The translations under genes and the position numbers were made by a program. Below the pieces are notes generated by a model. It was not told the origin of the DNA and did not search any database. It saw only the letters and a list, made by a program, of their open reading frames with translations. A stretch of DNA of 64,000 nucleotides, from assembly GCF_001677475.2 (NCBI RefSeq), contig NZ_CP015229.1. One strand, given 5' to 3'. Origin of the DNA: Escherichia coli (lineage in GTDB: Bacteria > Pseudomonadota > Gammaproteobacteria > Enterobacterales > Enterobacteriaceae). Of this stretch, positions 5,720 to 31,806 are shown piece after piece (the first letter of the stretch is position 1; every line of letters begins with the position of its first letter).

Positions 5720-6628
5720 ATGAAAACGGGATCTGAGTTTCATGTCGGTATCGTTGGCTTAGGGTCAATGGGAATGGGAGCAGCACTGTCATGTGTCCGC
5801 GCAGGTCTTTCTACCTGGGGCGCAGACCTGAACAGCAATGCCTGCGCTACGTTGAAAGAGGCAGGTGCTTGCGGGGTTTCTGATAACGCCGCGACGTTTG
5901 CCGAAAAACTGGACGCTCTGCTGGTGCTGGTGGTCAATGCGACCCAGGTTAAACAGGTGCTGTTTGGTGAAACAGGCGTTGCACAACATCTGAAACCCGG
6001 TACGGCAGTAATGGTTTCTTCCACTATCGCTAGTGCTGATGCGCAAGAAATTGCTACCGCTCTGGCTGGATTCGATCTGGAAATGCTGGATGCGCCAGTT
6101 TCTGGTGGTGCAGTAAAAGCCGCTAACGGTGAAATGACTGTCATGGCCTCCGGTAGCGATATTGCCTTTGAACGACTGGCACCCGTGCTGGAAGCCGTTG
6201 CCGGAAAAGTTTATCGCATCGGTGCAGAACCGGGACTAGGTTCGACCGTAAAAATTATTCACCAGTTGTTAGCGGGCGTACATATTGCTGCCGGAGCCGA
6301 AGCGATGGCACTTGCAGCCCGTGCGGGGATCCCGCTGGATGTGATGTATGACGTCGTGACCAATGCCGCCGGAAATTCCTGGATGTTCGAAAACCGGATG
6401 CGTCATGTGGTGGATGGCGATTACACCCCGCATTCAGCCGTCGATATTTTTGTTAAGGATCTTGGTCTGGTTGCCGATACAGCCAAAGCCCTGCACTTCC
6501 CGCTGCCATTGGCCTCAACAGCATTGAATATGTTCACCAGCGCCAGTAACGCGGGTTACGGGAAAGAAGACGATAGCGCAGTTATCAAGATTTTCTCTGG
6601 CATCACTCTACCGGGAGCGAAATCATGA
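5720..6628 (+). CDS. ygbJ: NAD-dependent 3-hydroxyisobutyrate-dehydrogenase-family enzyme (L-threonate dehydrogenase LtnD-like)
   Basis: 302 aa; N-terminal Rossmann GxGxxG (VGIVGLGSMGMG); first gene of the ygbJKLM cluster. Confidence 0.85.
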   Translation: MKTGSEFHVGIVGLGSMGMGAALSCVRAGLSTWGADLNSNACATLKEAGACGVSDNAATFAEKLDALLVLVVNATQVKQVLFGETGVAQHLKPGTAVMVSSTIASADAQEIATALAGFDLEMLDAPVSGGAVKAANGEMTVMASGSDIAFERLAPVLEAVAGKVYRIGAEPGLGSTVKIIHQLLAGVHIAAGAEAMALAARAGIPLDVMYDVVTNAAGNSWMFENRMRHVVDGDYTPHSAVDIFVKDLGLVADTAKALHFPLPLASTALNMFTSASNAGYGKEDDSAVIKIFSGITLPGAKS

Positions 6629-7887
6629 TCAAGATTGGCGTTATCGCCGATGATTTTACCGGCGCGACGGATATCGCCAGTTTTCTGGTGGAAAACGGTC
6701 TACCAACGGTACAAATTAACGGTGTTCCCACAGGTAAAATGCCGGAAGCAATCGACGCACTAGTGATCAGCCTGAAAACGCGCTCCTGTCCGGTGGTTGA
6801 AGCCACACAGCAATCGCTGGCGGCTCTGAGCTGGTTGCAACAGCAAGGTTGCAAACAGATCTATTTCAAATACTGCTCTACTTTCGACAGTACGGCGAAA
6901 GGTAATATCGGCCCGGTTACCGATGCGTTAATGGATGCTCTCGACACGCCGTTTACGGTCTTCTCTCCGGCCCTGCCGGTCAACGGACGTACGGTTTATC
7001 AGGGGTATTTGTTCGTAATGAATCAACTGCTGGCCGAATCTGGGATGCGCCATCACCCGGTAAATCCCATGACCGACAGCTATCTTCCCCGTCTGGTTGA
7101 AGCGCAATCCACAGGGCGCTGCGGCGTCGTTTCGGCACATGTTTTCGAACAAGGTGTAGATGCCGTTCGTCAGGAGCTGGCTCGCTTACAGCAAGAGGGC
7201 TATCGCTACGTGGTACTTGATGCGCTGACCGAACACCATCTGGAAATTCAGGGAGAAGCCTTGCGCGATGCTCCACTGGTAACGGGCGGTTCTGGTCTGG
7301 CGATTGGCCTGGCCCGGCAGTGGGCGCAAGAAAACGGTAACCAGGCTCGCGAAGCAGGGCGTCCGCTCGCTGGGCGCGGCGTAGTGCTCTCCGGTTCATG
7401 CTCTCAAATGACCAACCGCCAGGTGGCACATTACCGTCAAATTGCACCAGCCCGTGAAGTTGATGTGGCACGCTGCCTCTCAACCGAAACTCTGGCCGCT
7501 TATGCACACGAACTGGCAGAGTGGGTTCTGGGCCAGGAAAGTGTACTTGCTCCACTGGTTTTTGCCACCTCCAGCACTGACGCATTGGCAGCAATTCAAC
7601 AGCAATACGGTGCACAAAAAGCCAGTCAGGCAGTAGAAACGCTGTTTTCTCAACTAGCGGCGCGGTTAGCAGCGGAAGGCGTGACACGCTTTATTGTCGC
7701 AGGCGGTGAGACCTCCGGCGTAGTCACACAGAGCCTGGGCATAAAAGGGTTTCATATTGGCCCAACCATTTCCCCCGGCGTGCCGTGGGTAAACGCACTG
7801 GATAAGCCTGTCTCACTCGCCCTTAAATCTGGCAACTTCGGTGATGAAGCCTTTTTTTCACGAGCCCAAAGAGAGTTTTTATCATGA
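6625..7887 (+). CDS. ygbK: Four-carbon acid-sugar kinase, DUF1537 family (3-oxo-tetronate kinase OtnK-like)
   Basis: 420 aa; N-terminus MIKIGVIADDFTGATD typical of DUF1537 kinases; ATGA overlap with ygbJ stop. Confidence 0.85.
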   Translation: MIKIGVIADDFTGATDIASFLVENGLPTVQINGVPTGKMPEAIDALVISLKTRSCPVVEATQQSLAALSWLQQQGCKQIYFKYCSTFDSTAKGNIGPVTDALMDALDTPFTVFSPALPVNGRTVYQGYLFVMNQLLAESGMRHHPVNPMTDSYLPRLVEAQSTGRCGVVSAHVFEQGVDAVRQELARLQQEGYRYVVLDALTEHHLEIQGEALRDAPLVTGGSGLAIGLARQWAQENGNQAREAGRPLAGRGVVLSGSCSQMTNRQVAHYRQIAPAREVDVARCLSTETLAAYAHELAEWVLGQESVLAPLVFATSSTDALAAIQQQYGAQKASQAVETLFSQLAARLAAEGVTRFIVAGGETSGVVTQSLGIKGFHIGPTISPGVPWVNALDKPVSLALKSGNFGDEAFFSRAQREFLS

Positions 7888-8522
7888 GCGATTTCGCAAA
7901 AGTAGAGCAGTCTTTGCGAGAGGAGATGACGCGGATTGCCAGTTCATTCTTTCAGCGCGGCTATGCAACCGGTTCGGCTGGCAATCTGTCGCTGCTTTTA
8001 CCTGACGGGAATTTACTGGCGACACCGACAGGTTCATGCCTGGGTAATCTCGATCCGCAGCGGCTTTCCAAAGTCGCCGCGGATGGCGAATGGTTAAGTG
8101 GTGACAACCCCTCGAAAGAGGTGCTCTTTCATCTGGCGCTGTATCGCAACAATCCGCGCTGTAAAGCGGTGGTGCATTTGCACAGCACATGGTCGACGGC
8201 GCTTTCCTGCCTGCAAGGGCTGGACAGCAGCAACGTTATTCGTCCGTTCACACCATATGTGGTGATGCGGATGGGAAATGTCCCGCTGGTGCCCTATTAC
8301 CGACCGGGCGATAAACGCATCGCACAGGATCTGGCGGAACTGGCAGCAGACAATCAGGCTTTTTTACTGGCAAATCATGGCCCAGTGGTTTGCGGTGAAA
8401 GCCTGCAAGAAGCCGCCAACAATATGGAAGAGCTGGAGGAAACGGCAAAGCTGATTTTTATTCTCGGTGACCGCCCGATCCGTTATCTGACCGCAGGTGA
8501 AATTGCGGAATTAAGGAGTTAA
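7884..8522 (+). CDS. ygbL: Class II aldolase/adducin-family decarboxylase (OtnC-like)
   Basis: 212 aa; class II aldolase-like fold; ATGA overlap with ygbK stop. Confidence 0.85.
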
Positions 8523-8526
8523 TGCA

Positions 8527-9303
8527 ATGCCTCGTTTTGCAGCTAATTTATCCATGATGTTCACCGAAGTGCCTTTTATTGAACGCTTCGCCGCAGCGCG
8601 AAAAGCCGGGTTCGATGCTGTGGAATTTCTGTTTCCCTATGACTACTCCCCCCTGCAAATCCAAAAGCAACTGGTGCAAAACCATCTGACACTGGCGCTG
8701 TTCAATACCGCTCCCGGAGATATTAATGCGGGGGAATGGGGATTATCCGCCCTTCCCGGACGTGAGCAGGAAGCACGCGCAGACATCGACCTGGCACTGG
8801 AATATGCATTGGCGCTCAATTGTGAACAAGTCCATGTGATGGCAGGCGTCGTGCCCGCTGGCGAAGATGCTGAACGGTACCGGGCGGTATTTATCGATAA
8901 TCTCCGCTACGCTGCCGACCGCTTTGCGCCACACGGCAAGCGAATATTGGTTGAAGCACTCAGCCCCGGCGTTAAGCCTCATTATCTCTTCTCCAGCCAG
9001 TATCAGGCACTGGCTATTGTTGAAGAGGTTGCGCGAGATAACGTGTTTATTCAACTAGATACTTTCCATGCGCAAAAAGTAGATGGCAACCTGACGCATT
9101 TAATCCGCGACTACGCCGGGAAATATGCGCACGTACAAATTGCCGGACTACCTGATCGTCATGAACCGGACGATGGAGAAATCAACTATCCGTGGCTGTT
9201 CCGCCTGTTCGATGAAGTGGAATATCAGGGCTGGATCGGTTGTGAATACAAACCTCGTGGCCTCACCGAAGAAGGGCTTGGCTGGTTTGACGCCTGGCGC
9301 TAA
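8527..9303 (+). CDS. ygbM: Hydroxypyruvate-isomerase-family (TIM-barrel) isomerase (OtnI-like)
   Basis: 258 aa; xylose-isomerase-like TIM barrel; follows ygbL by 4 nt. Confidence 0.85.
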
Positions 9304-9391
9304 TTCGCTAAATCCCTAATTACAACGTACCCATACATCCCCCCATCTACGGATGGGGTAGGTTAACTATAACTTTCAGACAGGGTTTCCC

Positions 9392-10756
9392 ATGTCCACA
9401 ATTACATTGTTATGCATTGCGTTAGCTGGCGTAATCATGCTGTTGCTGCTGGTCATCAAGGCAAAGGTTCAACCATTCGTTGCTCTGCTCCTCGTCAGCC
9501 TGTTAGTCGCACTTGCGGCGGGTATACCGGCGGGCGAAGTGGGTAAAGTGATGGTCGCCGGGATGGGCGGTGTGCTTGGTTCCGTCACTATTATTATTGG
9601 TCTGGGCGCTATGCTGGGGCGTATGATCGAACACTCTGGTGGTGCAGAGTCACTGGCTAATTATTTCAGTCGCAAGTTAGGTGACAAACGAACTATCGCT
9701 GCGCTGACTCTGGCAGCGTTCTTCCTCGGTATTCCCGTCTTCTTTGATGTCGGCTTTATTATTCTTGCGCCAATCATTTACGGTTTTGCCAAGGTTGCCA
9801 AAATATCGCCACTCAAATTTGGCCTGCCTGTCGCTGGGATCATGCTCACTGTTCACGTGGCGGTACCGCCGCATCCAGGCCCTGTCGCCGCAGCGGGGTT
9901 ACTCCACGCAGACATCGGCTGGCTAACCATCATCGGTATTGCGATTTCTATTCCCGTAGGGATTGTTGGCTACTTTGCAGCGAAAATAATCAATAAGCGC
10001 CAATATGCGATGTCAGTAGAAGTACTGGAACAGATGCAACTGGCTCCGGCCAGTGAGGAAGGCGCGACAAAATTAAGCGATAAAATAAATCCACCGGGCG
10101 TCGCGCTGGTCACCTCGCTAATTGTTATTCCTATCGCGATTATCATGGCGGGTACGGTTTCTGCAACACTGATGCCGCCTTCGCATCCCCTGCTTGGTAC
10201 GCTACAGCTGATCGGCTCACCAATGGTAGCTCTAATGATTGCGCTGGTGCTGGCATTCTGGTTATTGGCTTTACGTCGCGGCTGGAGCTTACAACACACC
10301 AGCGACATTATGGGCTCAGCGCTTCCTACTGCGGCGGTAGTGATTTTGGTTACTGGTGCTGGAGGGGTATTTGGCAAAGTGCTGGTGGAATCGGGCGTCG
10401 GCAAAGCCCTTGCCAACATGTTACAAATGATTGACCTGCCTCTGTTACCAGCCGCATTTATTATTTCACTGGCGCTGCGTGCATCGCAGGGGTCAGCAAC
10501 CGTAGCAATACTGACAACCGGCGGGTTACTCTCAGAAGCGGTGATGAGATTGAATCCGATTCAGTGCGTATTGGTGACGCTGGCAGCCTGCTTTGGTGGG
10601 CTTGGTGCGTCACATATTAATGACTCAGGGTTCTGGATTGTGACCAAATATCTGGGATTGTCGGTAGCAGACGGTCTGAAAACCTGGACAGTGTTAACGA
10701 CCATTCTTGGTTTTACCGGATTCTTAATCACCTGGTGCGTATGGGCGGTGATTTAA
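9392..10756 (+). CDS. ygbN: GntP-family acid-sugar permease
   Basis: 454 aa, polytopic membrane protein; completes the ygbIJKLMN cluster. Confidence 0.85.
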   Translation: MSTITLLCIALAGVIMLLLLVIKAKVQPFVALLLVSLLVALAAGIPAGEVGKVMVAGMGGVLGSVTIIIGLGAMLGRMIEHSGGAESLANYFSRKLGDKRTIAALTLAAFFLGIPVFFDVGFIILAPIIYGFAKVAKISPLKFGLPVAGIMLTVHVAVPPHPGPVAAAGLLHADIGWLTIIGIAISIPVGIVGYFAAKIINKRQYAMSVEVLEQMQLAPASEEGATKLSDKINPPGVALVTSLIVIPIAIIMAGTVSATLMPPSHPLLGTLQLIGSPMVALMIALVLAFWLLALRRGWSLQHTSDIMGSALPTAAVVILVTGAGGVFGKVLVESGVGKALANMLQMIDLPLLPAAFIISLALRASQGSATVAILTTGGLLSEAVMRLNPIQCVLVTLAACFGGLGASHINDSGFWIVTKYLGLSVADGLKTWTVLTTILGFTGFLITWCVWAVI

Positions 10757-10763
10757 CCTTAAT

Positions 10764-10794
10764 AAAAAGGTCCGATGAGCATCGGACCTTTTAT
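10764..10794. terminator. Bidirectional rho-independent terminator between ygbN and the decarboxylase operon
   Basis: AAAGGTCCGAT-GAGC-ATCGGACCTTT hairpin flanked by an A-run upstream and TTTTATTT downstream; sits between convergent stops at 10756 and 10795. Confidence 0.75.
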
Positions 10795-11031
10795 TTAGCG
10801 CTTATCTGCCGCCAGCAGCGGCGGGATGCTCGGCACCATTGGCGCGTCATCAATATCTTTTTGTGTCATACGGAACGCTTGTGGGTAATGTTCACGGCTG
10901 GTGCGGCGTAGCGGTTCGGTATCGCGCCAGGTATAAAGGCAATGCTGGCACTGATATACCGTCCAGACATCTTTCACCGGCGATTTCGCCATCACTTCAA
11001 TCTGTTCATCGGCACAACGTGGACAAATCAT
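10795..11031 (-). CDS. Small subunit of UbiD-family (de)carboxylase (EcdD/KpdD/BsdD-like)
   Basis: 78 aa with Cys motifs (MICPRC...CQHC), directly downstream of the UbiD-like gene; arrangement typical of phenolic-acid decarboxylase BCD operons. Confidence 0.7.
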   Translation of the reverse strand: MICPRCADEQIEVMAKSPVKDVWTVYQCQHCLYTWRDTEPLRRTSREHYPQAFRMTQKDIDDAPMVPSIPPLLAADKR

Positions 11032-11041
11032 CTTCTTCTCC

Positions 11042-12469
11042 TTATTGACGCGCGGCCAGCATAGCGGTCAGTTTTTCAGCCCAGGCTTTGGTTTCCGGCA
11101 AATCCACCACCGGCTGGCTGTAGTGACCACGGTTGTCCGGGGCGACAGGCGTGGTGGCGTCGATAATCAGCTTGTCGGTGATGCCTGCCGGGCTTGAGCC
11201 AGGGTCGAGTTCCAGCACGGACATATTTGGTAGTTGCACCAAGTCGCCCGCCGGGTTCACTTTCGAGGAGAGCGCCCACATCACCTGCGGCAGGTTGAAC
11301 GGGTCAACGTCTTCATCGACCATAATCACCATCTTCACGTAGCCCAGACCGTGCGGCGTGGTCATCGCACGCAGGCCCACCGCGCGGGCAAAGCCGCCGT
11401 AGCGTTTTTTGGTGGAGATAATCGCCAGCAGGCCGTGGGTGTACATGGCGTTTACCGCCTGCACTTCCGGGAACTCGGCTTTCAGTTGTTGATACAGCGG
11501 TACGCAGGTGGCTGGCCCCATCAGGTAGTCGATTTCGGTCCACGGCATGCCGAGGTACAGCGATTCGAAAATCGGCCTGGTGCGGTAAGAGACTTTATCG
11601 ATGCGCACCACGGTCATGTTACGCCCGCCGGAGTAGTGTCCGGTAAACTCACCGAACGGCCCTTCGATTTCGCGTTTACGGCTTTCGATGACCCCTTCGA
11701 GGATCACTTCTGAACCCCACGGCACATCAAAACCGGTCAGCGGGGCGGTAGCGATCGGGTATGGGCTTTCACGCAGCGCGCCTGCCATTTCATACTCAGA
11801 CTGATCGTATTTCAGTGGCGTAGCCCCCATCAGCGTGATGATCGGATCGTTACCGAGCGTGATCGCAATCGGTAGATCTTCACCGCGCTCTTCTGCTTTA
11901 TGTAGATGCAGGGCGATATCGTGCATCGGCACCGGTTGTAGGCCGAGCTTTCGCTTGCCCTTCACTTCCATGCGGTAGATGCCGACGTTCTGCTTGCCGA
12001 AGTTATCCGGGTCGAGCGGATCGCGGGAAACCACGCAGGCTTTGTCGAGATAGAAACCGCCATCGCCATCGTTTAAACGAAACAGCGGCAGGATATCGAA
12101 CAGGTTAATCTCGTCGCTATCAACGGTGTTCTGCGCCCAGGCAGGATTGGCGCGGCGCTCCGGGGCAATCGGGAAGTTATCCCAGCGGCGAATAAACTCA
12201 TCAATCTGTTTTTTAACCGGAGTGTTTGCCGGCAGGCCGAGGGAAATCGCATGGTTCTGCCAGGAACCGATGGTATTCATCGCCACGCGGGCATCGGTAA
12301 AGCCGCGAATATTGTCAAACCACAGCGCCGGTGCGCCGTCGCCGATACGCCCGGTGGCGTTAGCTGCTGCTGCCAGATCCGGCTCAGCGTTCACCTCTTC
12401 GCTGATTTTCAGTAACTGGCCGTGGTCATCAAGCGCCTGTAAAAAGCTGCGTAAATCATCAAATGCCAT
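11042..12469 (-). CDS. UbiD-family prenylated-FMN-dependent aromatic-acid decarboxylase (EcdC/YclC-like)
   Basis: 475 aa; UbiD-like N-terminus MAFDDLRSFLQALDDHGQLLKISEEVNAEPDLAAAA. Confidence 0.85.
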   Translation of the reverse strand: MAFDDLRSFLQALDDHGQLLKISEEVNAEPDLAAAANATGRIGDGAPALWFDNIRGFTDARVAMNTIGSWQNHAISLGLPANTPVKKQIDEFIRRWDNFPIAPERRANPAWAQNTVDSDEINLFDILPLFRLNDGDGGFYLDKACVVSRDPLDPDNFGKQNVGIYRMEVKGKRKLGLQPVPMHDIALHLHKAEERGEDLPIAITLGNDPIITLMGATPLKYDQSEYEMAGALRESPYPIATAPLTGFDVPWGSEVILEGVIESRKREIEGPFGEFTGHYSGGRNMTVVRIDKVSYRTRPIFESLYLGMPWTEIDYLMGPATCVPLYQQLKAEFPEVQAVNAMYTHGLLAIISTKKRYGGFARAVGLRAMTTPHGLGYVKMVIMVDEDVDPFNLPQVMWALSSKVNPAGDLVQLPNMSVLELDPGSSPAGITDKLIIDATTPVAPDNRGHYSQPVVDLPETKAWAEKLTAMLAARQ

Positions 12470-13062
12470 TATTTATTCTCCTGAGAAAAATTCCGGGCCT
12501 GCGGCAATCCTTGCCAGCGCCTGGCGTGGGGATGTTCGAGGCCAAATTGATCCAGCACGCGGGCTACCACATGGTGGACAATGTCATCTACCGTTTCGGG
12601 ATGGTTATAAAAGGCAGGCATCGGCGGCACCATCGCCACGCCCATGCGTGAAAGTGCGAGCATATTTTCGAGATGGATGGTGCTAAGCGGCATTTCACGC
12701 GGCACCAGCACCAGTTTGCGGCCTTCTTTGAGCACGACGTCCGCCGCGCGCCCTACCAGGCCATCGGCGTAACCAGCGCGGATACCGGAGAGCGTTTTCA
12801 TACTGCACGGAATAACGATCATGCCGTCGGTACGAAAAGAACCGGATGAGATGATCGCCGCCTGATCCGCCGGGTTATGGCTGAAGTCTGCGAGGGCAGC
12901 AACATCGCGAGCGCTGTAAGGCGTTTCCAGTTCAATGGTGGTTTTCGCCCACTTCGACATCACCAGATGAGTCTCGACATTCGGCATCTCCCGCAGCGCT
13001 TGCAGTAATGCCACACCAAGAGGCGCACCGGTAGCCCCTGTCATCCCGACGATCAGTTTCAT
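12469..13062 (-). CDS. UbiX/Pad1-family flavin prenyltransferase (EcdB-like)
   Basis: 197 aa; N-terminal MKLIVGMTGATGAPLGVALLQAL is the UbiX/PAD1 flavoprotein signature; stop overlaps the UbiD-like start by 1 nt. Confidence 0.85.
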   Translation of the reverse strand: MKLIVGMTGATGAPLGVALLQALREMPNVETHLVMSKWAKTTIELETPYSARDVAALADFSHNPADQAAIISSGSFRTDGMIVIPCSMKTLSGIRAGYADGLVGRAADVVLKEGRKLVLVPREMPLSTIHLENMLALSRMGVAMVPPMPAFYNHPETVDDIVHHVVARVLDQFGLEHPHARRWQGLPQARNFSQENK

Positions 13063-13208
13063 TGCTTATTCTCTTAATTGTTCGTATACGAACGTTATTA
13101 TTAACATACTCCTTCATTTCCACAGCGGCAAGGATTGAAAAGTAACAACATCTTCTTCGTCACTAAAAAACCGCTATGATAGCGACAGAGAATTAGCCCG
13201 GAGTTTAC

Positions 13209-13616
13209 ATGGCGTTACGAAATAAAGCGTTCCATCAGTTACGACAGCTTTTTCAGCAGCACACGGCTCGCTGGCAGCACGAGTTACCTGACCTGACCAA
13301 ACCACAGTATGCGGTGATGCGCGCCATTGCTGATAAGCCTGGTATCGAACAGGTGGCACTGATAGAAGCAGCAGTCAGCACCAAAGCAACGTTGGCAGAA
13401 ATGTTGGCAAGAATGGAGAATCGTGGCTTAGTCAGACGTGAACATGATGCCGCTGACAAGCGGCGTCGCTTTGTCTGGCTGACTGCCGAAGGAGAAAAGG
13501 TACTTGCTGCGGCGATACCGATTGGTGACAGTGTGGATGAGGAATTTTTGGGGCGTTTGAGTGCAGAAGAGAAGGAGCTGTTTATGCAGCTGGTGCGCAA
13601 GATGATGAGCACATAG
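13209..13616 (+). CDS. MarR-family transcriptional regulator, divergent from the decarboxylase operon
   Basis: 135 aa; winged-helix MarR architecture (…QYAVMRAIADKPGIEQVALIEAAVSTKATLAEMLARMENRGLVRR…). Confidence 0.8.
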   Translation: MALRNKAFHQLRQLFQQHTARWQHELPDLTKPQYAVMRAIADKPGIEQVALIEAAVSTKATLAEMLARMENRGLVRREHDAADKRRRFVWLTAEGEKVLAAAIPIGDSVDEEFLGRLSAEEKELFMQLVRKMMST

Positions 13617-13624
13617 AATGCTGA

Positions 13625-13660
13625 TTGCCGGGTAGGACGCTGACGTGTCTTATCCAGGCG
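13625..13660. repeat. REP-like palindromic element
   Basis: GACGCTGACGTGTCTTATCCAGGC closely matches the E. coli REP core (GACGCTGACGCGTCTTATCAGGC). Confidence 0.4.
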
Positions 13661-13683
13661 ACAAAAACACATGCATCCCAAAC

Positions 13684-13720
13684 AAAAGAAAAAAGGCCAG
13701 CCTCGCTTGAGACTGGCCTT
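13684..13720 (-). terminator. rpoS rho-independent terminator
   Basis: GGCCAG / CTGGCC stem with 12-nt loop, followed on the minus strand by TTTTTTCTTTTGTTT; 17 nt after the rpoS stop. Confidence 0.7.
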
Positions 13721-13736
13721 TCTGACAGATGCTTAC

Positions 13737-14729
13737 TTACTCGCGGAACAGCGCTTCGATATTCAGCCCCTGCGTTTGCAGGATTTCGCGCAAACGGCGC
13801 AGGCCTTCAACCTGAATCTGGCGAACACGTTCACGGGTGAGGCCAATTTCACGACCTACATCTTCCAGTGTTGCCGCTTCGTACCCCAGCAAACCGAATC
13901 GACGTGCCAGTACTTCACGCTGTTTGGCGTTCAGCTCGAACAGCCATTTGACGATGCTCTGCTTCATATCGTCATCTTGCGTGGTATCTTCCGGACCGTT
14001 CTCTTTTTCATCGGCCAGGATGTCCAGCAACGCTTTTTCGGAATCACCACCCAGCGGGGTGTCTACCGAGGTAATGCGCTCGTTAAGACGAAGCATACGG
14101 CTGACGTCATCAACTGGCTTATCCAGTTGCTCTGCGATCTCTTCCGCACTTGGTTCATGGTCCAGCTTATGGGACAACTCACGTGCGGTTCGCAGGTAAA
14201 CGTTCAGCTCCTTTACGATGTGAATCGGCAAACGAATAGTACGGGTTTGGTTCATAATCGCCCGTTCAATCGTCTGGCGAATCCACCAGGTTGCGTATGT
14301 TGAGAAGCGGAAACCACGTTCCGGGTCAAACTTCTCTACCGCGCGGATCAGCCCCAGGTTGCCCTCTTCGATCAGGTCCAGCAACGCCAGACCACGATTG
14401 CCATAACGGCGGGCAATTTTTACCACCAGACGCAAGTTACTCTCGATCATCCGGCGGCGGGAGGCAACATCTCCACGCAGTGCGCGACGCGCAAAATAAA
14501 CTTCTTCTTCGGCCGTTAACAGTGGTGAATAACCAATCTCACCAAGGTAAAGCTGAGTCGCGTCCAACACACGCTGTGTGGCTCCCTGCGATAACAGTTC
14601 CTCTTCGGCCAAATCGTTATCACTGGGTTCCTCTTCTACTAAGGCCTTTTCGTCAAAAACCTCAACTCCGTTCTCATCAAATTCCGCATCTTCATTTAAA
14701 TCATGAACTTTCAGCGTATTCTGACTCAT
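13737..14729 (-). CDS. rpoS: RNA polymerase sigma factor RpoS (sigma-38)
   Basis: 330 aa from ATG 14729 ([14 protein letters not shown]…), GGAG SD upstream; sigma-70 regions 2-4 present. Full length, no premature stop. Confidence 0.95.
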
Positions 14730-14791
14730 AAGGTGGCTCCTACCCGTGATCCCTTGACGGAACATTTAAGCAAAAGCCTGGTTCCGCCGAT

Positions 14792-15931
14792 TTATCGCTG
14801 CGGCAAATAACGCAGCGGGTTTACGGATTTCCCCTTGTAACGAATTTCAAAATGCAAGCGTGTTGAACTGGTTCCGGTGCTACCCATGGTTGCTATTTTT
14901 TGCCCCGCCTTCACTTCTTGTTGTTCCCGGACCAGCATTGTGTCGTTATGGGCGTAGGCACTCAGGTAATCATCATTATGTTTGATGATAATCAGATTAC
15001 CGTAGCCGCGCAGCGCGTTACCGGCATAAACAACGCGGCCATCTGCGGTCGCGATAATTGCCTGTCCTTTGCTGCCTGCGATATCAATCCCCTTGTTGCC
15101 CCCCTCAGAAGCGCCAAAGGTTTCGATCACTTTACCCTCAGTCGGCCAGCGCCAGGTGGAGATAGGCGTACTGGTTGATGTACTGCTGACAGTCGGCTCG
15201 GTTGTGCTTGCTGTTGGTACCGTTACAGGCGCTGTGACCGTGGTCGCAGTTGGCTTGTTGTTCGGCAACATTTTGTTAGCACTCTGTTCACCCGAAGACT
15301 CAGAATACGTAATTGTCGGTTGCGAAGCAACAGCAACGGTGGAATTTTGTGCAGGCTTGATCACAACTCCTTGCTCTGCTGCGTCGGCCTGGGTAATGGC
15401 ATTTCCGCCAGTGATTGGAGTACCGGAAGCATTCCCCACCTGTAAGGTCTGACCGACGTTCAGCGCGTATGGTGCCTGAATATTGTTGCGCTGAGCAAGG
15501 TCACGGAAATCGTTGCCAGTAATCCAGGCGATATAGAAAAGTGTGTCGCCTTTTTTCACTGTATAGGTACTGCCGCTATAACTGCCTTTCGGAATGTTCC
15601 CATACTGACGGTTATAGACGATGCGTCCGTTTTCCATCTGTACCGGCTGCTGAGCTACTGGCTGCACCGGCTGGATTTGCGGTTGTTGAGTGGCCTGAAT
15701 TTGTGGCTGCTGTACCGGCTGAATTTGCGGTTGCTGAGTTGTAGACGTCGTCCCCATTTTCGGCGGCGGCGTAATCAACATACCAGAATTGGTATTTGCA
15801 GGCGCATTGCCATTAACGGAGCTGACCGGGGCCGGTGGATTTGAAGTGTCAGAACAGCCTGCCAGCCATAGCGAAACCAGTGACAAAGCCGCAATGCGGC
15901 GAACGGTGAATTTTGGGCTTCCCGCGCTCAT
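14792..15931 (-). CDS. nlpD: Murein hydrolase activator lipoprotein NlpD (LysM plus M23 peptidase domains)
   Basis: 379 aa; lipobox LAGCS, Gln/Pro-rich repeats, C-terminal M23 domain. Confidence 0.93.
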
Positions 15932-16070
15932 TTATCCCCCAGGAAAAATTGGTTAATAACCAGTGACATAATTACCGTGCAAGGCACCATACTGAACACT
16001 GGAAAAGATGTTCACGATACGCTGACCTGCGGCAAAATAACCAGGAAAAATCCAGGTATTTCCTCACGTT

Positions 16071-17432
<1,362 letters not shown>

Positions 17433-17452
<20 letters not shown>

Positions 17453-18482
17453 AATCACCTGTTGTGTTGATAAGTTCCCTGACAACGCTGGTTGCAAAAC
17501 TACCCGCCGGAAGCCAGAAACGGATTTCTACGGTGACGTCATCCCACCAGTTCCAGCTTAATTGTTGCGGATACAGCAGCATCGCTCTGCGCGCGGCTTC
17601 AACTTTTTCGCGCACCAGTAAGGCTTGTAATTCAGTTTCTGCGGCGACAGCTGCTTGTTCGAATGCCAGCGCTTCACGCTGAGTTCCCCATTCGCCACTG
17701 CCCGGCAATGTGGCGGTTATCATTAGCTCTTTATCGTTGACGCGACGCTGTAATTCCGCCAGTTCTTCGGTGGTTGCAACAAACCAGCTACCACGTCCGG
17801 CTAATTGTAGCGCATCGCCGTCAACAACTTGATTAACGTCTGCTTTTTTGAGGCGCTCAGCAACAATCTGATTAAACAACGCACTGCGGGCTGCCGACAA
17901 CCAAAAACTCCGTTTATTGCGATCGCGCACCGGAGTATTGGTTTGCGCCCAGCGCAGCGCGCCCTGCAAGTTGCTACCGCCAATCCCAAAACGTTGGGCA
18001 CCGAAGTAGTTCGGTACACCTTTTACGCAAATATCGATCAGACGTTGTTCAACGTCATCGCGATTGCTCACTTCGCGCAGAACCAGGGTAAAGGCGTTAC
18101 CTTTCAGCGCGCCTAAACGCAGCTTGCGCTTGTGCCGCGCATACTCCAGCACCTGGCAGCCTTCCAGTTGAAAGGCGCTCAGATCGGGCATTTCCTTGCC
18201 CGGCACGCGAGCGCATAACCACTGTTCCGTAACAGCATGTTTGTCTTTTTGCCCAGCGAAGCTGACTTCACGGGAATGAATTTTCAGGAATTTCGCCAGT
18301 GCATCCGCCACAAAACGGGTATTGCAGCCGTTTTTGAGGATTCTAACCAGAATATGCTCACCTTCACCATCAGGCTCAAAGCCCAAATCTTCCACCACCA
18401 CAAAGTCTTCCGGATTGGCTTTCAGCAGCCCGGTGCCTTGCGGTTTACCGTGGAGGTAAGTGAGATTATCAAACTCAATCAT
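17433..18482 (-). CDS. truD: tRNA pseudouridine(13) synthase TruD
   Basis: 349 aa; conserved position between ispF and surE. Confidence 0.93.
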
Positions 18483-24816: not shown

Positions 24817-25516
24817 GGGAGTTCTACCGCAGGGGCGGGGAACTCCAAGTGATATCCATCATCGCATCCAGTGCGCCCGGTTTATCCCCGCTGGCGCGGG
24901 GAACACCAAATCCAGCCAGCCGCCGACGGTAATCACCCCGGTTTATCCCCGCTGGCGCGGGGAACACTATGGGGTAGGGCGCTATCAGACATTTACGCAC
25001 GGTTTATCCCCGCTGGCGCGGGGAACACTGCAAGTAACGTTAAGGGAACCGTGGAGACAGCGGTTTATCCCCGCTGGCGCGGGGAACACTTAGAAAACGC
25101 AATGAGCCGCGCGCCCATACCCGGTTTATCCCCGCTGGCGCGGGGAACACGGCACGCTGGACTGAACAAATCCCTGGGCCATCGGTTTATCCCCGCTGGC
25201 GCGGGGAACACACTTACAACCACAATAATAAAAAAAGCCTCGTCGGTTTATCCCCGCTGGCGCGGGGAACACGCCGCTATCTCACCACCAGAACTGTTAC
25301 CCGTCGGTTTATCCCCGCTGGCGCGGGGAACACTTGCAGTGGATAGTCATGTAGCCCGCGCGGGCCGGTTTATCCCCGCTGGCGCGGGGAACACTTTAAA
25401 TACTGCCGTTCCAGCTTGTTGATCGCCGGTTTATCCCCGCTGGCGCGGGGAACACCGTAACTGCCTGTACACGCTGTAATGGCTCACCGGTTTATCCCCG
25501 CTGGCGCGGGGAACAC
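24817..25516 (-). CRISPR. CRISPR array 1 (type I-E): 11 identical 29-nt repeats plus 1 degenerate terminal repeat, 11 spacers of 32 nt
   Basis: Repeat CGGTTTATCCCCGCTGGCGCGGGGAACAC (plus strand) recurs at 24878 + 61k for k=0..10. Degenerate distal repeat at 24817-24845 (GGGAGTTCTACCGCAGGGGCGGGGAACTC). Leader is on the cas2 side, so transcription is on the minus strand. Confidence 0.97.
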
Positions 25517-25612: not shown

Positions 25613-26822
<1,210 letters not shown>

Positions 26823-26826
<4 letters not shown>

Positions 26827-27473
26827 GCCTCTGCTCCGGGTTTGATCAGCATCAGACCACAACCGAACGCCCGGCTTTTGCCATACCCCTGACTGAGACG
26901 TTGCAGAAATAACCCAGGATCGGTGACCGTAAGCATCCCCGTATAATCCACGCTACTGAACTGGATCAGTTGCCGGGAGTTTTCCCGCCGCAGTTGCTGT
27001 TGTCGGTAGGCATCAACCGAAGTATCCAGCAGTGTAAAACCGCTTCTCTCCCCCTGCGCTGCCAGCCAGTTCAGCGCAGCCTGTTGTTGATGCAACCAGA
27101 CATCACTTCCTTCCACCGGCCCCCTCACCTGCCGTTTCGCCTCCATCAGCAAGTCGTGGCGTTTGCCCGCTTTACAAATTGTTGGATTCGCCCGCAGGTT
27201 GAAACAAAGGGATTGTCCGGTACGCAACTCTGGCGCAAATGGTCGGCATTCGATGGTGAAAATATCACTTTCCGCCGGGCGTTCCTGCGACAGGACAAAA
27301 AAGCGAAACGCCCCCTGGAGTTCTTCCCGACGATAAAGAAATTGCCTTTCTTTGCCGCCAGGAAAAAGATCCCACAGCCACTGATGCATTACATATTCAC
27401 CGCGATCCACCAAATGCAGCAACTGCGCAGGCGAAAGCTGGCCGGTATGTAATGTTATTCTTGAGAGGTACAT
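26823..27473 (-). CDS. cas6e: crRNA endoribonuclease Cas6e (CasE)
   Basis: Start at ATG 27473 (MYLSRITLH…) preceded by AAGGAGGA; 216 aa; Gly-rich C-terminal segment (GYGKSRAFGCGLM). Strongly diverged from K-12 CasE as recalled. Confidence 0.9.
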
Positions 27474-28201
27474 GGTTCCTCCTTGCTGAGCCACGGCCCC
27501 TGATTGATGGTGCGTTCCCCAAACAGCCACTGCTGACGATTTAAAGGAACATCCCGGCGACGTAATATTTTGCTCGCGACCAGGCCGTCGTGTTCCCCTT
27601 CCCACCAGCATTCATCCTGAAGTTTCGGGAGTGAGACTTTCAGTTCGCGGAAACTATCCTGATACTGTTGGTATGCGTTACGTAAGACATCAGACGCGTT
27701 GCCTTCGAGCAGTAACGGCGCAAGTGGTAACGCCAGCGGATGACTTTTTCGCCCCAGATAAAGCGGAAAAACCGGATGACGTAAACCGTCCTGCAACTGT
27801 TCAAGGCTGTAAGGCGCATCGGGGGTTGTTGCCACCGCCACCATCCACCAGGCATCGGTGTAGTAGTCGCGCCGGGAGATAATCGCGCTCAGAAGATCAG
27901 GGGCGCTCAACTCTTCGCGACGGCTGAAATAACGCGCTTTACGCACCTCTTTTGGCATCTGGACCGTGTGATAATCCCGTGCCCAGCGCGGGTTACGGCT
28001 GGCGCAAACCACCAGTGAATAGTGGCGGTTAAACGCGTTTAATCGTTCGGTATCATCACGCCGAATCCCTACCCCGGCAGCCAGCAGCCCCAGCAATGCT
28101 GAGCGCGAAGGCAGTTCATGGGTATGACGCACTTCGCCGGGGGCATCGACGCCCCAGGATGCCATTGGCCCATGAAGCTGAAAAATCAAATATTGGCTCA
28201 T
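27455..28201 (-). CDS. cas5: Cascade subunit Cas5e (CasD)
   Basis: 248 aa; N-terminus MSQYLIFQLHGPMASWG parallels K-12 CasD (MRSYLILRLAGPMQAWG); 19-nt overlap with cas6e start. Confidence 0.9.
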   Translation of the reverse strand: MSQYLIFQLHGPMASWGVDAPGEVRHTHELPSRSALLGLLAAGVGIRRDDTERLNAFNRHYSLVVCASRNPRWARDYHTVQMPKEVRKARYFSRREELSAPDLLSAIISRRDYYTDAWWMVAVATTPDAPYSLEQLQDGLRHPVFPLYLGRKSHPLALPLAPLLLEGNASDVLRNAYQQYQDSFRELKVSLPKLQDECWWEGEHDGLVASKILRRRDVPLNRQQWLFGERTINQGPWLSKEEPCTSQE

Positions 28202-28211
28202 TAGCCGCCCC

Positions 28212-29267
28212 TTACGCGCAGATAAAGTCCAGCACGTCCTTCATGCTTCCCTGTTTGTTCATCACGTCAAAGCTTGCGCATTCGGTCTTCTGTTCATAGA
28301 CCGTATTCATATTTTCGCGAAGCGTTGTAATACGCTGCACCGCCACATCTAACTGCCGGGTGCCATTAATGGGTTCATAGAAAGCCGCCGCCAGAGAGCG
28401 TGGTTGTTCAGTGCCTTTTTCTGCCAGCGCCCAGGAGGCGTAGGCACGGCTGGCAAAGCTGTTCTGTTTGCCGGTTGGGGAGACTTTAAGTGCGGCTTCC
28501 GTAAAGGCGCGCAAGGTCTGATTAGCTAACGCTTCGTCACCGCCGAGGTTTTCGACCAGCAGATCTTTATCGATGCAGATATAGGTGTAGAACAGCGCAG
28601 AACCGAATCCGGTTTCACCAAGATGCCCGGCACCGGCATCTTCAGAAGCCTGGCGCAAATCATCAACGGCGGTGAAAAAATCATCTTCGACAATCGTTTC
28701 ACTGACACCAAATGCATGCGCGACCTGGCAGGCGGCTTCAACATTAAATTCGGGTTTATTCGCCAGCATACGACCAAACATAGCGATATCTACTGCCATG
28801 CGATCTTTACGTAACAAAGCGAGATCTTCCTCTTTTGGCGCGCGCTTTTCTTCGGCCAGTTGATGGGCCAGCGCTTTTACGGCGTCAAATTCTGCCGGGC
28901 TGATATGGACTAGCTGTTCAGTTTCGGCGTTAGTGAGCGGATCTTTTGGTTTTTTGTCGTTTTTAGCTTTCCCAAGATAATCCGCAATTTTCGCCGCCCA
29001 TTCGATGGCTTTTTTCTCTTCGATGCCTTTCTCAATCAGGATAGTTGCCGCCTCACGCGCAATACGCCCACTGCGAATACCAATATGGCCCGCCAGCGCC
29101 TGTTCAAAAAGTGCAGAAGTGCGCCACGCACGTTTCAGACTTTGTGAGGAAACGCGCAGACGCGTTGCTCCACCCAGTACCACAGTTTTTGGCGCACCGG
29201 TGTCATCACGGTTAAGGTTGGCAGCAGGGTAAGCGGTTAACAAATGAAGCTGAATAAATGTCGTCAT
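28212..29267 (-). CDS. cas7: Cascade backbone subunit Cas7e (CasC)
   Basis: 351 aa; N-terminal …LNRDDTGAPKTVVLGGATRLRVSSQSLKRAWR… typical of Cas7e. Confidence 0.9.
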   Translation of the reverse strand: MTTFIQLHLLTAYPAANLNRDDTGAPKTVVLGGATRLRVSSQSLKRAWRTSALFEQALAGHIGIRSGRIAREAATILIEKGIEEKKAIEWAAKIADYLGKAKNDKKPKDPLTNAETEQLVHISPAEFDAVKALAHQLAEEKRAPKEEDLALLRKDRMAVDIAMFGRMLANKPEFNVEAACQVAHAFGVSETIVEDDFFTAVDDLRQASEDAGAGHLGETGFGSALFYTYICIDKDLLVENLGGDEALANQTLRAFTEAALKVSPTGKQNSFASRAYASWALAEKGTEQPRSLAAAFYEPINGTRQLDVAVQRITTLRENMNTVYEQKTECASFDVMNKQGSMKDVLDFICA

Positions 29268-29281
29268 GAGATAGTCCTTTA

Positions 29282-29818
29282 TTAATTTTGTTCGTTATCG
29301 GCGTCGCCAGCCTGGTAATATTCCAGCGCCCAGCGGATACGGATAAATTCTGTTGGCCGCTGCTGGCGGCGGTGATGATTGAGCAGATCGTCGCTCTCCT
29401 GGCACCAGCGGAAAATATCGTCTGCCAAAGAGATAAGATTGACGGAACCATTTAATAATTTGACCGCGCGACGTAACTGGCGCAGTAATTCATCCGGCGT
29501 TTTGACTGCCGACAGGCGAGTAAAACGCCCCTCAGACATTACCGCCGCCAACTGCGCGGCAAAAGGCTGCCGTTCATCAATGGCTTTTACATTGGCGGCA
29601 ACGGCGGCAACCAGCGCCAGTGCGGTAAAACGCCACTCCTGTGATTCAATTTTCCACAACGTGTGGGTCTGCATCAGCAGTGAACGAAACCCTTCTGACA
29701 GACAAACATCATTAACCGTTGTGCTACGCCGCAGACTGGCACGATTGCCGCGTTTTTCCTGCAACTCTTCGTGCCATTTACGCAGCGTGGCTTTGTGCTC
29801 CTCTTTTACAATACTCAT
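29282..29818 (-). CDS. cse2: Cascade small subunit Cse2 (CasB)
   Basis: 178 aa, basic helical protein between cse1 and cas7; ATGA overlap with cse1 stop. Confidence 0.85.
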   Translation of the reverse strand: MSIVKEEHKATLRKWHEELQEKRGNRASLRRSTTVNDVCLSEGFRSLLMQTHTLWKIESQEWRFTALALVAAVAANVKAIDERQPFAAQLAAVMSEGRFTRLSAVKTPDELLRQLRRAVKLLNGSVNLISLADDIFRWCQESDDLLNHHRRQQRPTEFIRIRWALEYYQAGDADNEQN

Positions 29819-31377
29819 TCAGCAGCCTCCTGCTTTTTCTCCCTGGCGGCTTTAGCACTTTGCTTCTCCGCCGATGTTGTAAAATATTTCTTGCGCGCGG
29901 TCATGACGCGTTTCAAATCAACGGGCTCATAAGGATTAGTGAATACACGCTCGTCAAAATCCTGACGCGCGAATAACCAAATTTCCTTTTGCCATTTGCC
30001 GAGTAATTCATCCGCATCCTGACCTTCTTCAATTTGGCGCACTAACCTCAGGAAGCGATGCTGAGTTTTGTTCCAGAAGTCGATATCCACAAAACTGAAA
30101 TCACCCCTTGCACCTTTTGGATCGGAGAACCATGCTTCTTTCAATGCACTCCGTAACAGACTCAGAATCCGTGAAGCCGTTTGCGCAGCCAGCCGCAGCT
30201 TCGGTATCTGGCCTTCTTTTTTATTGAGCAGTAGCGGGAAATGGTGTTCGTACCAACAGCGCGCTTTCATGTTGTCAAAATCATAACCAAATCCCCACAG
30301 GCCCACTTTTGCCTGTTTCAGACTGCTGGCATTAAAGAGTTTCACCACCAGCGCGGGAAGTTCCGTATTGTTTTCTGATTTACCCGTTTCGATAAGGCCT
30401 AACCAGTCGCGCCAGATTAAACCGCCCGGTTGTGGTTTAACGGAGTAAAACTCGCCACCCTCTTTAAGTGGTACACGGTAAGGCGTTAAGGGATGCTGCC
30501 ACATGGCATAATTGGCACCATAATTTTTGGTCGTCATCAGGCTCAGGAGCGCGTCGTTCTGCTCGTCGCAAATATCGCAGTTGCCGACTGTCGTGGTATT
30601 AAAATCAATACGTATACGCCGCGGCATTCCCCAGTACGCCTGGAGTTTATTGACCTGATCATGGGTTACCACCGCACCGGCCAGTTCGCTGGTACGCGTC
30701 GGGCCTAGCCAGGGGAAAATCAGATCGTCAAATTTTTTGGGTAGCGGTAAGTCGGCTTCATCCTGCGGCATCACGTTGAGCCACAGTTTGCGCCACAAGG
30801 GTGTTTGTTGATTGCCCTGATATTCCTGTAATTCAATGAGAGTCGTCATCGGCCCACCGCCGCGTAAACCGGTGCGATAGCCTTTGCCGCCCGCGGGTGC
30901 ATTCAACTGTAAAGAGAACAAGGCCAATGCTAAGCAATGGGGGCACAGATATTCCGTTACACCCCGCTTGATAAAATGGTCTTTATTAAACTTCGTCGTT
31001 TGAGAACCGGGAATCTCAGGCAGTAGCGAAGCGACCGGAACTTTATCTCCCGTGAGCGCCTCAAAATCCTGCATAAATGAAGGGGAATCTGGCCCAAACT
31101 GGAAAGCATGTTCTAAGGACAGCAATGCTTCCCGTAGCTTTTCAGCTTCCAGTCCGTCTTCCCAGATATCATCCCAACGACGATGATCTTTTGGCGCGAA
31201 GCTGGTTTGTAGTAGCCCCAGCAAAAACTGCCAGGCCGCCCCCTGGAGATCTGCCCGCGGCGCAGCGATATCGACAACATTTTCATCCGCCAGATCGACT
31301 GGCGCCAGTTTGCCTGTCGTTCCGTCTTTATAACGAACGGGCAACCACGGGGTTGTTATAATTGAAAAAAATTCCAT
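29815..31377 (-). CDS. cse1: Cascade large subunit Cse1 (CasA)
   Basis: Start at ATG 31377 (MEFFSIITTPWLPVRYKDG…) with GAGG SD; ORF-track start 31392 is TTG. N-terminus parallels K-12 Cse1 (…NWIPVRPRNG…). Confidence 0.88.
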   Translation of the reverse strand: MEFFSIITTPWLPVRYKDGTTGKLAPVDLADENVVDIAAPRADLQGAAWQFLLGLLQTSFAPKDHRRWDDIWEDGLEAEKLREALLSLEHAFQFGPDSPSFMQDFEALTGDKVPVASLLPEIPGSQTTKFNKDHFIKRGVTEYLCPHCLALALFSLQLNAPAGGKGYRTGLRGGGPMTTLIELQEYQGNQQTPLWRKLWLNVMPQDEADLPLPKKFDDLIFPWLGPTRTSELAGAVVTHDQVNKLQAYWGMPRRIRIDFNTTTVGNCDICDEQNDALLSLMTTKNYGANYAMWQHPLTPYRVPLKEGGEFYSVKPQPGGLIWRDWLGLIETGKSENNTELPALVVKLFNASSLKQAKVGLWGFGYDFDNMKARCWYEHHFPLLLNKKEGQIPKLRLAAQTASRILSLLRSALKEAWFSDPKGARGDFSFVDIDFWNKTQHRFLRLVRQIEEGQDADELLGKWQKEIWLFARQDFDERVFTNPYEPVDLKRVMTARKKYFTTSAEKQSAKAAREKKQEAAE

Positions 31378-31752: not shown

Positions 31753-31781
31753 CTGTTCCCCGCGTCAGCGGGGATAAGCCC
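31753..31781 (+). repeat. Solo CRISPR-repeat-like sequence, inverted relative to both arrays, just downstream of cas3
   Basis: Plus strand CTGTTCCCCGCGTCAGCGGGGATAAGCCC; its reverse complement matches the array repeat at 25 of 29 positions; begins 26 nt from the cas3 stop. Confidence 0.6.
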
Positions 31782-31806
31782 TGGCGTCATCCGACTCCAG
31801 GGCATC

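Follow-up and report, generated by a model that had tools for sequence, protein, structure and literature searches.

The 64,000-nucleotide stretch of Escherichia coli DNA analysed here (contig NZ_CP015229.1 of assembly GCF_001677475.2; hereafter the window) carries, in the interval from ygbN to rpoS, a segment missing from K-12 that encodes the three subunits of a decarboxylase together with a divergently transcribed regulator of the MarR family. We are highly confident that this locus is hosA-ecdBCD itself, also known as slyA-pad1-yclC, kpdRBCD or the 'HAD operon', and not merely a relative of it. hosA-ecdBCD is the already known non-oxidative, reversible hydroxyarylic acid decarboxylase (HAD) system of E. 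coli, and its locus, enzymes, regulator, operator, ligand and strain distribution have all been published. Our comparison of genomes further indicates that the segment is ancestral next to rpoS in the Enterobacteriaceae, and that the arrangement in K-12 is the derived state, left by a 2.9-kb deletion.

Gene coordinates were taken from the list of open reading frames (ORFs) of the window, which reproduced to the base those given in a preliminary description made from its letters alone; the three-gene B-C-D operon and the divergent MarR gene proposed there proved exact in reading frames, lengths and coordinates (Table 1). The genes ecdB, ecdC and ecdD are co-oriented on the minus strand, with a 1-nt overlap between B and C and a 10-nt gap between C and D, and the terminator scan found no terminator-like site between them on that strand. 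The divergent intergenic region between hosA and ecdB (13063-13208) measures 146 bp, and a gap of 120 bp separates hosA from rpoS. RefSeq annotates the orthologues as 'non-oxidative hydroxyarylic acid decarboxylases subunit B/C/D' accompanied by a MarR regulator, and GenBank already holds the exact proteins of the window, deposited from E. coli (ANO90542-ANO90544), on about 50 contigs.

Profile models of NCBIfam and alignments with solved structures identify each of the subunits. Subunit C scores 789.6 bits against the VdcC model (cut-off 650) and falls far below the cut-offs of its paralogues, with 171.6 against 788 for the UbiD equivalog and 202.5 against 495.9 for menaquinone decarboxylase. 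Its residues 3-471 align with VdcC of Sedimentibacter hydroxybenzoicus (ShVdcC, 7AE4_A; E 1.1e-160), and the motifs NVGIYR (161; N161, R166), MHD (182; H183), EYEMAG (225-230) and EGPFGE (E269, E274) are identical in that alignment. From what is established for Fdc1 and UbiD, and from the Glu-Arg-Glu (ERE) motif described in PMC8379154, these motifs are assigned to the Glu-Arg-Glu triad and to the Asn, His and Glu residues that act as ligands of the metal and of the phosphate of prenylated flavin mononucleotide (prFMN). Subunit D reaches 120.5 bits against the VdcD equivalog (cut-off 30), matches the ShdD chain 7AE4_a over its full length at 7.5e-11, and has cysteines at positions 3, 6, 28 and 31 that make up two CXXC knuckles; these are the positions of the zinc ligands of ShVdcD, in which the four cysteines coordinate the metal (PMC8379154). 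Subunit B is identical at 193 of 197 residues to PDB 1SBZ, the Pad1 protein of E. coli O157:H7, and scores 310.5 bits against VdcB (cut-off 290) and 245.5 against TIGR00421 (cut-off 108.9). Judged by these model cut-offs and near-identical solved structures, the earlier calls of a UbiX-like protein, a UbiD-like protein, a Cys-rich small subunit and a MarR regulator were all correct.

By analogy with characterized relatives, EcdB, as a member of the UbiX family, would prenylate reduced flavin mononucleotide to give the prFMN cofactor, and its homologues indeed produce prenylated flavin (summarised in PMC5779730). EcdC, a UbiD-family enzyme and probably a hexamer, would then use prFMN to convert 4-hydroxybenzoate to phenol and vanillate to guaiacol, releasing CO2 in a reversible and oxygen-sensitive reaction, and the four-cysteine zinc ribbon of EcdD would bind EcdC, hold the loops that carry the catalytic Glu-Arg-Glu residues, and be needed for activity. 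Both the role of D and the substrates are taken from the literature. VdcD, a zinc ribbon, is strictly required for the activity of VdcC, to which it binds tightly while stabilizing the loops with the catalytic Glu-Arg-Glu, and oxygen inactivates the VdcCD enzyme at its cofactor (PMC8379154). According to a table in a review, which cites Lupa 2005, EcdCD of E. coli O157:H7 stands under '4-hydroxybenzoate decarboxylases' with two accepted substrates and reverse carboxylation (PMC6644310); from the headings of that table, we infer that the second substrate is vanillate. Decarboxylation assays of the kind suggested in the preliminary description are therefore already published for this locus, and its proposal of 4-hydroxybenzoate or vanillate decarboxylation under MarR control agrees with the published biochemistry of the O157:H7 enzyme and of HosA.

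The regulator encoded in the window, a winged-helix protein of the MarR type, is identical to HosA (PDB 8AGA) at 133 of 135 residues and matches MarR-family models of NCBIfam. In the divergent region lies a perfect 14-bp palindrome, and a published HosA-binding-site oligonucleotide (supplement of PMC6261655) includes TTAATTGTTCGTATACGAACGTTATTA, which matches window positions 13075-13101 exactly. For comparison across species, one genome per species was scanned for relatives of C, of which there were 353, and the best 80 loci were kept and compared with the window proteins by tblastn; with at most 3 mismatches, the operator recurs in 77 of 77 intergenic regions (the window plus 76 species loci). 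According to a 2024 preprint that reports on Roy & Ranjan 2016, both the HAD operon and hosA are repressed by the HosA protein of E. coli UMN026, the palindromic site lies downstream of the transcription start, and 4-hydroxybenzoate releases HosA (bioRxiv 10.1101/2024.04.24.590444). Electrophoretic mobility shift assays and isothermal titration calorimetry with HosA of UMN026 and 4-hydroxybenzoate, with a KD of 4.74 uM, are likewise part of the published record (PMC6261655), so that the mobility shift experiment with a phenolic ligand proposed for the divergent region in the preliminary description already exists for HosA. On this model, HosA would bind GTTCGTATACGAAC just downstream of the ecdB promoter and thereby block transcription of both the operon and hosA, and binding of 4-hydroxybenzoate would release HosA from the DNA and induce the operon.

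Promoter positions were deduced from phylogenetic footprints. The alignment of intergenic regions across genera contains three conserved blocks, namely a -35/-10-like pair (CTTG(C/T)C with TAtgTT), the operator, and a TATGAT block; 9 genera share the blocks CTTG(C/T)C and GTAt-nTTaAt. The ecdBCD promoter predicted on this basis would put the operator just downstream of the transcription start, in agreement with the published location of the HosA site. On the hosA side, the genera have CTATCATA(G/A)CGG in common but not the palindrome CGCTATGATAGCG (13173-13185) of the window; because other genera keep TATGAT without the palindrome, we read CGCTATGATAGCG as the site of a putative hosA -10 element, and rejected it as a second operator or a minus-strand terminator. 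A second site resembling the HosA operator (e.g. GATCGTATACGAAC), typically ~73 nt upstream of B, was seen in 32 of the 77 intergenic regions, with the proximal operator alone being present in the window, in the two closest Escherichia-like loci and in several other genera. The intergenic spacer is 145-147 bp long in the window and these two Escherichia-like loci, as opposed to ~170 bp otherwise.

In K-12 MG1655, rpoS comes directly after ygbN, as the preliminary description had stated, and the spacer between them measures 93 bp. When this spacer is aligned with the window, the breakpoints fall at 10795/10796 and 13690/13691; in place of the 2,895 bp that they enclose, K-12 has 8 bp, GTGCACAG. 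The gene order of the window, o454(ygbN)-kpdD-kpdC-kpdB-slyA(hosA)-rpoS, is the published 'pattern IV' of the o454-nlpD region, given as o454-kpdD-kpdC-kpdB-slyA-rpoS among the mutS-rpoS patterns I-IV (PMC4209514), which bears out the earlier assignment of the interval to the mutS-rpoS polymorphic region. Pattern IV is that of enteropathogenic E. coli (EPEC) E2348/69, and a '2.9 Kb sequence harboring hosA, pad1 and yclC' has been described downstream of rpoS in EPEC (PMC5491219); genomes of the O157:H7 and O55:H7 types lack the ygbI-N block and have pphB as the left neighbour, which corresponds to pattern I. Among 5,426 complete E. coli genomes in RefSeq, with presence defined as at least 80% coverage, we found the segment in 2,380 (44%), always on the chromosome and almost always as a single copy, and it was absent from 56%.

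These RefSeq copies are 94.3-97.6% identical to the window at the nucleotide level, whereas the best identity of the flanks reaches 99.0% on the ygb side (6000-10756) and 99.4% on the rpoS side (13737-17500). Alleles thus differ far more within the segment than in its flanks, and the high synonymous divergence (dS) of ecdC between E. coli alleles, 0.11-0.31, fits the recombination-prone character of the mutS-rpoS region. An origin of the segment in Shigella or outside E. coli, suspected since its best RefSeq match is 97.6%, was rejected, as database entries for the identical proteins are assigned to E. coli and the flanks match E. coli at 99.0-99.4%.

Beyond E. coli, 51 of the 80 species loci have rpoS no more than 7 kb away from the cluster. 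It directly abuts hosA in 34 of them (gap 67-235 bp), including Citrobacter, Pseudocitrobacter, Kluyvera, Atlantibacter, Kosakonia, Franconibacter, Mangrovibacter, Cedecea, and some Klebsiella and Enterobacter; 0.4-2.7 kb separate rpoS and hosA in 12, and in 5 (Salmonella arizonae, diarizonae, Phytobacter) the cluster is inverted, with D abutting rpoS. More distant Enterobacterales (Rahnella, Pantoea, Erwinia) and a Vibrio carry the cluster at another place in their genomes. In nucleotides, the window is 81-90% identical to other genera, versus 94-97.6% within E. coli. At the breakpoints, we found no integrase, insertion sequence (IS) or tRNA features and no direct repeats, and K-12 has 8 unrelated bases in their place. 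Because the rpoS-hosA-B-C-D order is common to many genera, the identities fit vertical descent, and the breakpoints are free of mobile features, the segment appears to be ancestral next to rpoS, with K-12 having lost it, and its deletion in K-12 and other lineages would have given rise to the known mutS-rpoS polymorphism. The preliminary description had the polarity wrong when it called the operon 'inserted between ygbN and rpoS': given the nlpD-rpoS-hosA-B-C-D synteny across genera, the expression can mean only that the segment is present relative to K-12.

Several variations on this arrangement were observed among the species loci. The UbiX-like B is missing from the cluster, leaving hosA-C-D, in 12 of the 80 loci (L049, L056, L057, L067, L069, L070, L073, L076, L079, L081, L086 and L087 in our numbering), and these clusters must use another prenyltransferase for prFMN. 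In several species of Enterobacter, Lelliottia, Leclercia and Klebsiella (L013, L018, L031, L032, L035, L038, L045, L051 and L064), rpoS and hosA are separated by an extra ~2.6 kb, which in K. oxytoca (L038), the sole locus for which ORFs were listed, consists of a gene for a LysR-type regulator, one for a transporter of the major facilitator superfamily (MFS) and a small ORF; the hotspot has thus undergone a further indel. Copies of EcdC with 88-91% identity occur in Vibrio salinus (L082) and in a record titled Martelella alba, an alphaproteobacterium (L077), which suggests either transfer between orders or a mislabelled or contaminated assembly. Finally, the metagenome-assembled genome HRGM_Genome_0066, labelled 'Citrobacter sp.', contains two copies of the cluster on different contigs (L008 and L014), one E. 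coli-like and 95.5% identical to the window in nucleotides, the other Citrobacter-like and 82% identical, and probably mixes two organisms.

The sequence itself holds nothing at odds with the known, HosA-controlled operon. The following observations weigh on the other side. Relative to six other E. coli alleles, the window has substitutions of its own (P81A in C; T70I, A92S and E197K in B; E51Q in D; Q122K in HosA), no copy in the 5,426 complete genomes comes closer to its allele than a nucleotide divergence of 2.4%, a consensus scan called no sigma-70 promoter in the divergent intergenic region, and HosA is reported to affect motility (bioRxiv 10.1101/2024.04.24.590444, PMC5491219), so that its regulon may exceed the operon. 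The private substitutions could be taken for signs of a decaying, non-functional remnant that in this strain is heading for the loss seen in K-12, and the region is a known hotspot of gene loss (the K-12 deletion; patterns I-IV). However, none of these substitutions falls on a zinc ligand or in a catalytic motif, all four reading frames are intact and equal in length to the six other alleles and to the RefSeq orthologues, and the operator, the start-stop overlap of B and C, the zinc-binding cysteines and the catalytic motifs are preserved; moreover, about 50 independent contigs encode these very proteins. Pairwise ratios of nonsynonymous to synonymous divergence (dN/dS, Nei-Gojobori) are 0.012-0.033 for C, 0.03-0.11 for D and 0.09-0.25 for B. 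That of hosA, ~0.7-1.1 against the closest alleles, would by itself speak for decay, but it reflects only 4-5 changes and stands at 0.07-0.18 against more distant alleles. By these ratios, purifying selection acts on the genes. Considering the intact frames, the low dN/dS and the placement of the substitutions away from zinc ligands and catalytic motifs, decay seems unlikely, and a cluster already non-functional and on its way out strikes us as barely credible.

The deep divergence of the alleles also bears on a different account, in which the segment is a horizontal island recently acquired between ygbN and rpoS. A dS of 0.11-0.31 for C between alleles whose flanks are 99.0-99.4% identical points to recombination, and the absence of the segment from K-12 and 56% of E. 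coli genomes would agree with an island; so would the proposal of the 2024 preprint that hosA was acquired from Shigella (bioRxiv 10.1101/2024.04.24.590444). The GC content of the segment, 0.55-0.60 as against 0.49-0.53 in the immediate flanks, points the same way, although it could stem from an acquisition long ago, when the family arose, or simply from gene-specific composition. What a recent arrival does not account for is the order nlpD-rpoS-hosA-B-C-D in Citrobacter, Pseudocitrobacter, Enterobacter, Klebsiella, Kluyvera, Kosakonia, Atlantibacter, Franconibacter, Mangrovibacter and others, its inverted form in Salmonella arizonae, diarizonae and Phytobacter, the lower identity to other genera than among E. 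coli alleles, as vertical descent predicts, and the lack of integrase, IS, tRNA features or direct repeats at the breakpoints. We therefore regard a recent island as very unlikely and retain the reading of an ancestral segment deleted in K-12.

It is also conceivable, if doubtful, that the enzyme has been identified correctly and yet serves a purpose other than the catabolic removal of dietary 4-hydroxybenzoate or vanillate, be it carboxylation of phenol in the anaerobic, high-CO2 gut, adjustment of the level of endogenous 4-hydroxybenzoate, the ubiquinone precursor, during stationary phase, or provision by EcdB of a second supply of prFMN for UbiD. The reaction is listed as reversible (PMC6644310) and the enzyme class is oxygen-sensitive (PMC8379154), but decarboxylation is the activity that the table of the former source gives as measured for the E. 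coli, Klebsiella and Salmonella enzymes, and the ligand to which HosA responds, according to the preprint cited above, is the substrate of that reaction; Had-carrying gut bacteria are, moreover, predicted to form phenol from 4-hydroxybenzoate. B homologues are known to serve non-cognate UbiD-family enzymes such as AroY (PMC5779730), and the 12 species without B in the cluster imply that the supply of prFMN is exchangeable with that of the housekeeping UbiX. A role beyond catabolism could further be sought in the linkage to rpoS, found in 51 species loci, and in the housekeeping-like conservation of C. In more than a dozen genera, the cluster and rpoS are immediate neighbours, and C is conserved almost as tightly as RpoS; its median amino acid identity across the 80 loci is 96%, compared to ~75% for NlpD and ~73% for HosA, figures that are meaningful only within loci, as these were chosen for their similarity to C. 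Nevertheless, a shared gene order within one family is what vertical descent predicts and by itself gives no evidence of functional coupling, and K-12 lives without the cluster. For these two reasons, we think it improbable that the linkage is functional, with the cluster managing the endogenous pool of 4-hydroxybenzoate (a ubiquinone precursor) or a phenolic signal at the entry into stationary phase; if it were, repeated loss as in K-12 would be part of the known trade-off selection on the rpoS region.

Table 1. Coordinates of the hosA-ecdBCD segment, its flanking genes and the associated sites in the window
Feature	Position	Strand	Details and basis
ygbN (o454), GntP-family transporter	9392..10756	+	NCBIfam NF007332, 825 bits vs cut-off 524; RefSeq names orthologue ygbN; left flank, outside segment
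Bidirectional intrinsic terminator of convergent ygbN/ecdD	10765..10792	.	Plus strand -17.3 kcal/mol (z -6.0), minus strand -17.7 kcal/mol (z -5.6)
ecdD/vdcD/kpdD, zinc-ribbon subunit D, activator of subunit C	10795..11031	-	78 aa; NCBIfam VdcD equivalog
Segment absent from K-12	10796..13690		2,895 bp; blastn breakpoints of K-12 ygbN-rpoS spacer vs window; K-12 annotation
ecdC/vdcC/kpdC/yclC, UbiD-family prFMN-dependent hydroxyarylic acid decarboxylase subunit C	11042..12469	-	475 aa; NCBIfam VdcC
ecdB/pad1/kpdB, UbiX-family flavin prenyltransferase subunit B	12469..13062	-	197 aa; NCBIfam VdcB, 1SBZ
HosA operator	13080..13093	.	Perfect 14-bp palindrome GTTCGTATACGAAC; read from sequence; 17 nt upstream of ecdB ATG
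Putative ecdBCD promoter	13103..13131	-	-35 TTGCCG 13131-13126, 17-nt spacer, -10 TATGTT 13108-13103; phylogenetic footprint
Putative hosA -10 element TATGAT	13175..13180	+	Inside CGCTATGATAGCG palindrome; footprint
hosA (earlier 'slyA'/kpdR), MarR-family repressor sensing 4-hydroxybenzoate	13209..13616	+	135 aa; 8AGA, NCBIfam MarR-family matches
REP-like imperfect palindrome, 3' of hosA	13622..13663	+	-23.5 kcal/mol, z -4.8, plus strand only; ends in CTTATCCAGGC
rpoS intrinsic terminator	13690..13723	-	-24.5 kcal/mol; terminator scan and folding; identical in K-12
rpoS	13737..14729	-	330 aa; right flank; start of translation; RefSeq annotation of orthologue

The segment is bordered by hairpins on both sides. 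That between ygbN and ecdD folds equally well on both strands and has an A-run upstream and a T-run downstream, the latter overlapping the ecdD stop codon, which together confirm the bidirectional terminator proposed earlier for the ygbN side; since the same hairpin occurs in the ygbN-rpoS spacer of K-12, it is to be counted with ygbN rather than with the segment that K-12 lacks. It was missed by the terminator scan, probably because its stem runs into the A and T runs, and was recognized by folding instead. For the rpoS terminator, scan and folding agree with the preliminary description. Its third element, a repetitive extragenic palindromic (REP) sequence, stood only in part: there is a strong hairpin 3' of hosA, and 4,342 genomes, as against the 2,380 with the segment, have copies related to it at 1-5 places each, but a search of the window for the classical REP consensus, with up to 3 mismatches allowed, gave no hit, and the short REP tail motif is barely above chance. 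This palindrome is a probable 3' stabilizer or terminator of hosA. An Rfam scan of positions 9000-16500 returned no match.

Two further features of the window were noted in passing. The otnK (ygbK) gene at 6625-7887 encodes an OtnK protein of 420 aa and overlaps the start of otnC, whereas the K-12 YgbK (L002:336-1502) has 388 aa and its alignment to the window protein ends at residue 384; the K-12 copy looks truncated at its C terminus. Two CRISPR (clustered regularly interspaced short palindromic repeats) arrays, at 25000-25516 and 51147-51605, carry the E. coli type I-E repeat CGGTTTATCCCCGCTGGCGCGGGGAAC, and the first adjoins a block of minus-strand ORFs (25903-34506), presumably cas genes.

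HosA is already in use as a biosensor of 4-hydroxybenzoate. For annotation, the value of the present analysis lies in marking the window, on the strength of its sequence, as that of a pattern IV E. coli with an intact, presumably phenol-forming hydroxybenzoate decarboxylase, which is relevant to the production of phenol in the gut and to tolerance of parabens and phenolic acids. For the evolution of the mutS-rpoS region, the analysis argues that the K-12 arrangement, being derived by deletion, is not the baseline from which other strains depart.

Among known systems, the closest is EcdBCD (Pad1-YclC-YclD) with HosA of E. coli O157:H7 and EPEC, which shares the locus, gene order, gene lengths and operator and is nearly identical in B (193/197) and HosA (133/135). 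Herbelin 2000, Lupa 2005 and Roy & Ranjan 2016 are said to have dealt with this rpoS-adjacent 2.9-kb segment of the mutS-rpoS region. The 2,895 bp found here correspond to the published '2.9 kb' (PMC5491219), and the differences are allelic only, with 94.3-97.6% nucleotide identity to the RefSeq copies, apart from the left neighbour, which is ygbN here and pphB in O157:H7 and O55:H7. Next come KpdBCD of Klebsiella, EcdBCD of Enterobacter and StdBCD of Salmonella, with amino acid identities of 95-97% in C, ~90% in D and 84-91% in B, a divergent hosA and adjacent rpoS; as listed in the review table, the reported activity of these orthologues is that of a 4-hydroxybenzoate decarboxylase (PMC6644310). 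They depart from the window by the extra 2.6 kb (LysR regulator and MFS transporter) between rpoS and hosA in Klebsiella, Enterobacter and Leclercia, by the inversion of the cluster in Salmonella arizonae and diarizonae, and, in many of these loci, by the second operator-like site ~73 nt upstream of B, which E. coli lacks.

VdcCD of S. hydroxybenzoicus and Bacillus subtilis (ShdCD, BsdBCD; 7AE4) resembles the present system in its three subunits, its UbiD-type C and its zinc-ribbon D with cysteines at positions 3, 6, 28 and 31; it takes 4-hydroxybenzoate and vanillate, needs D and is sensitive to oxygen (PMC8379154). It differs in its Gram-positive hosts, in a D subunit that is only weakly similar outside the zinc knuckles, and in having neither a divergent regulator of the HosA type nor linkage to rpoS. 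UbiX and UbiD of K-12, which act in ubiquinone biosynthesis, belong to the same two enzyme families and share the same prFMN chemistry, but they are paralogues (C scores 171.6 against the UbiD cut-off of 788), and UbiD works without a D subunit on a polyprenylated substrate and is encoded elsewhere in the genome.

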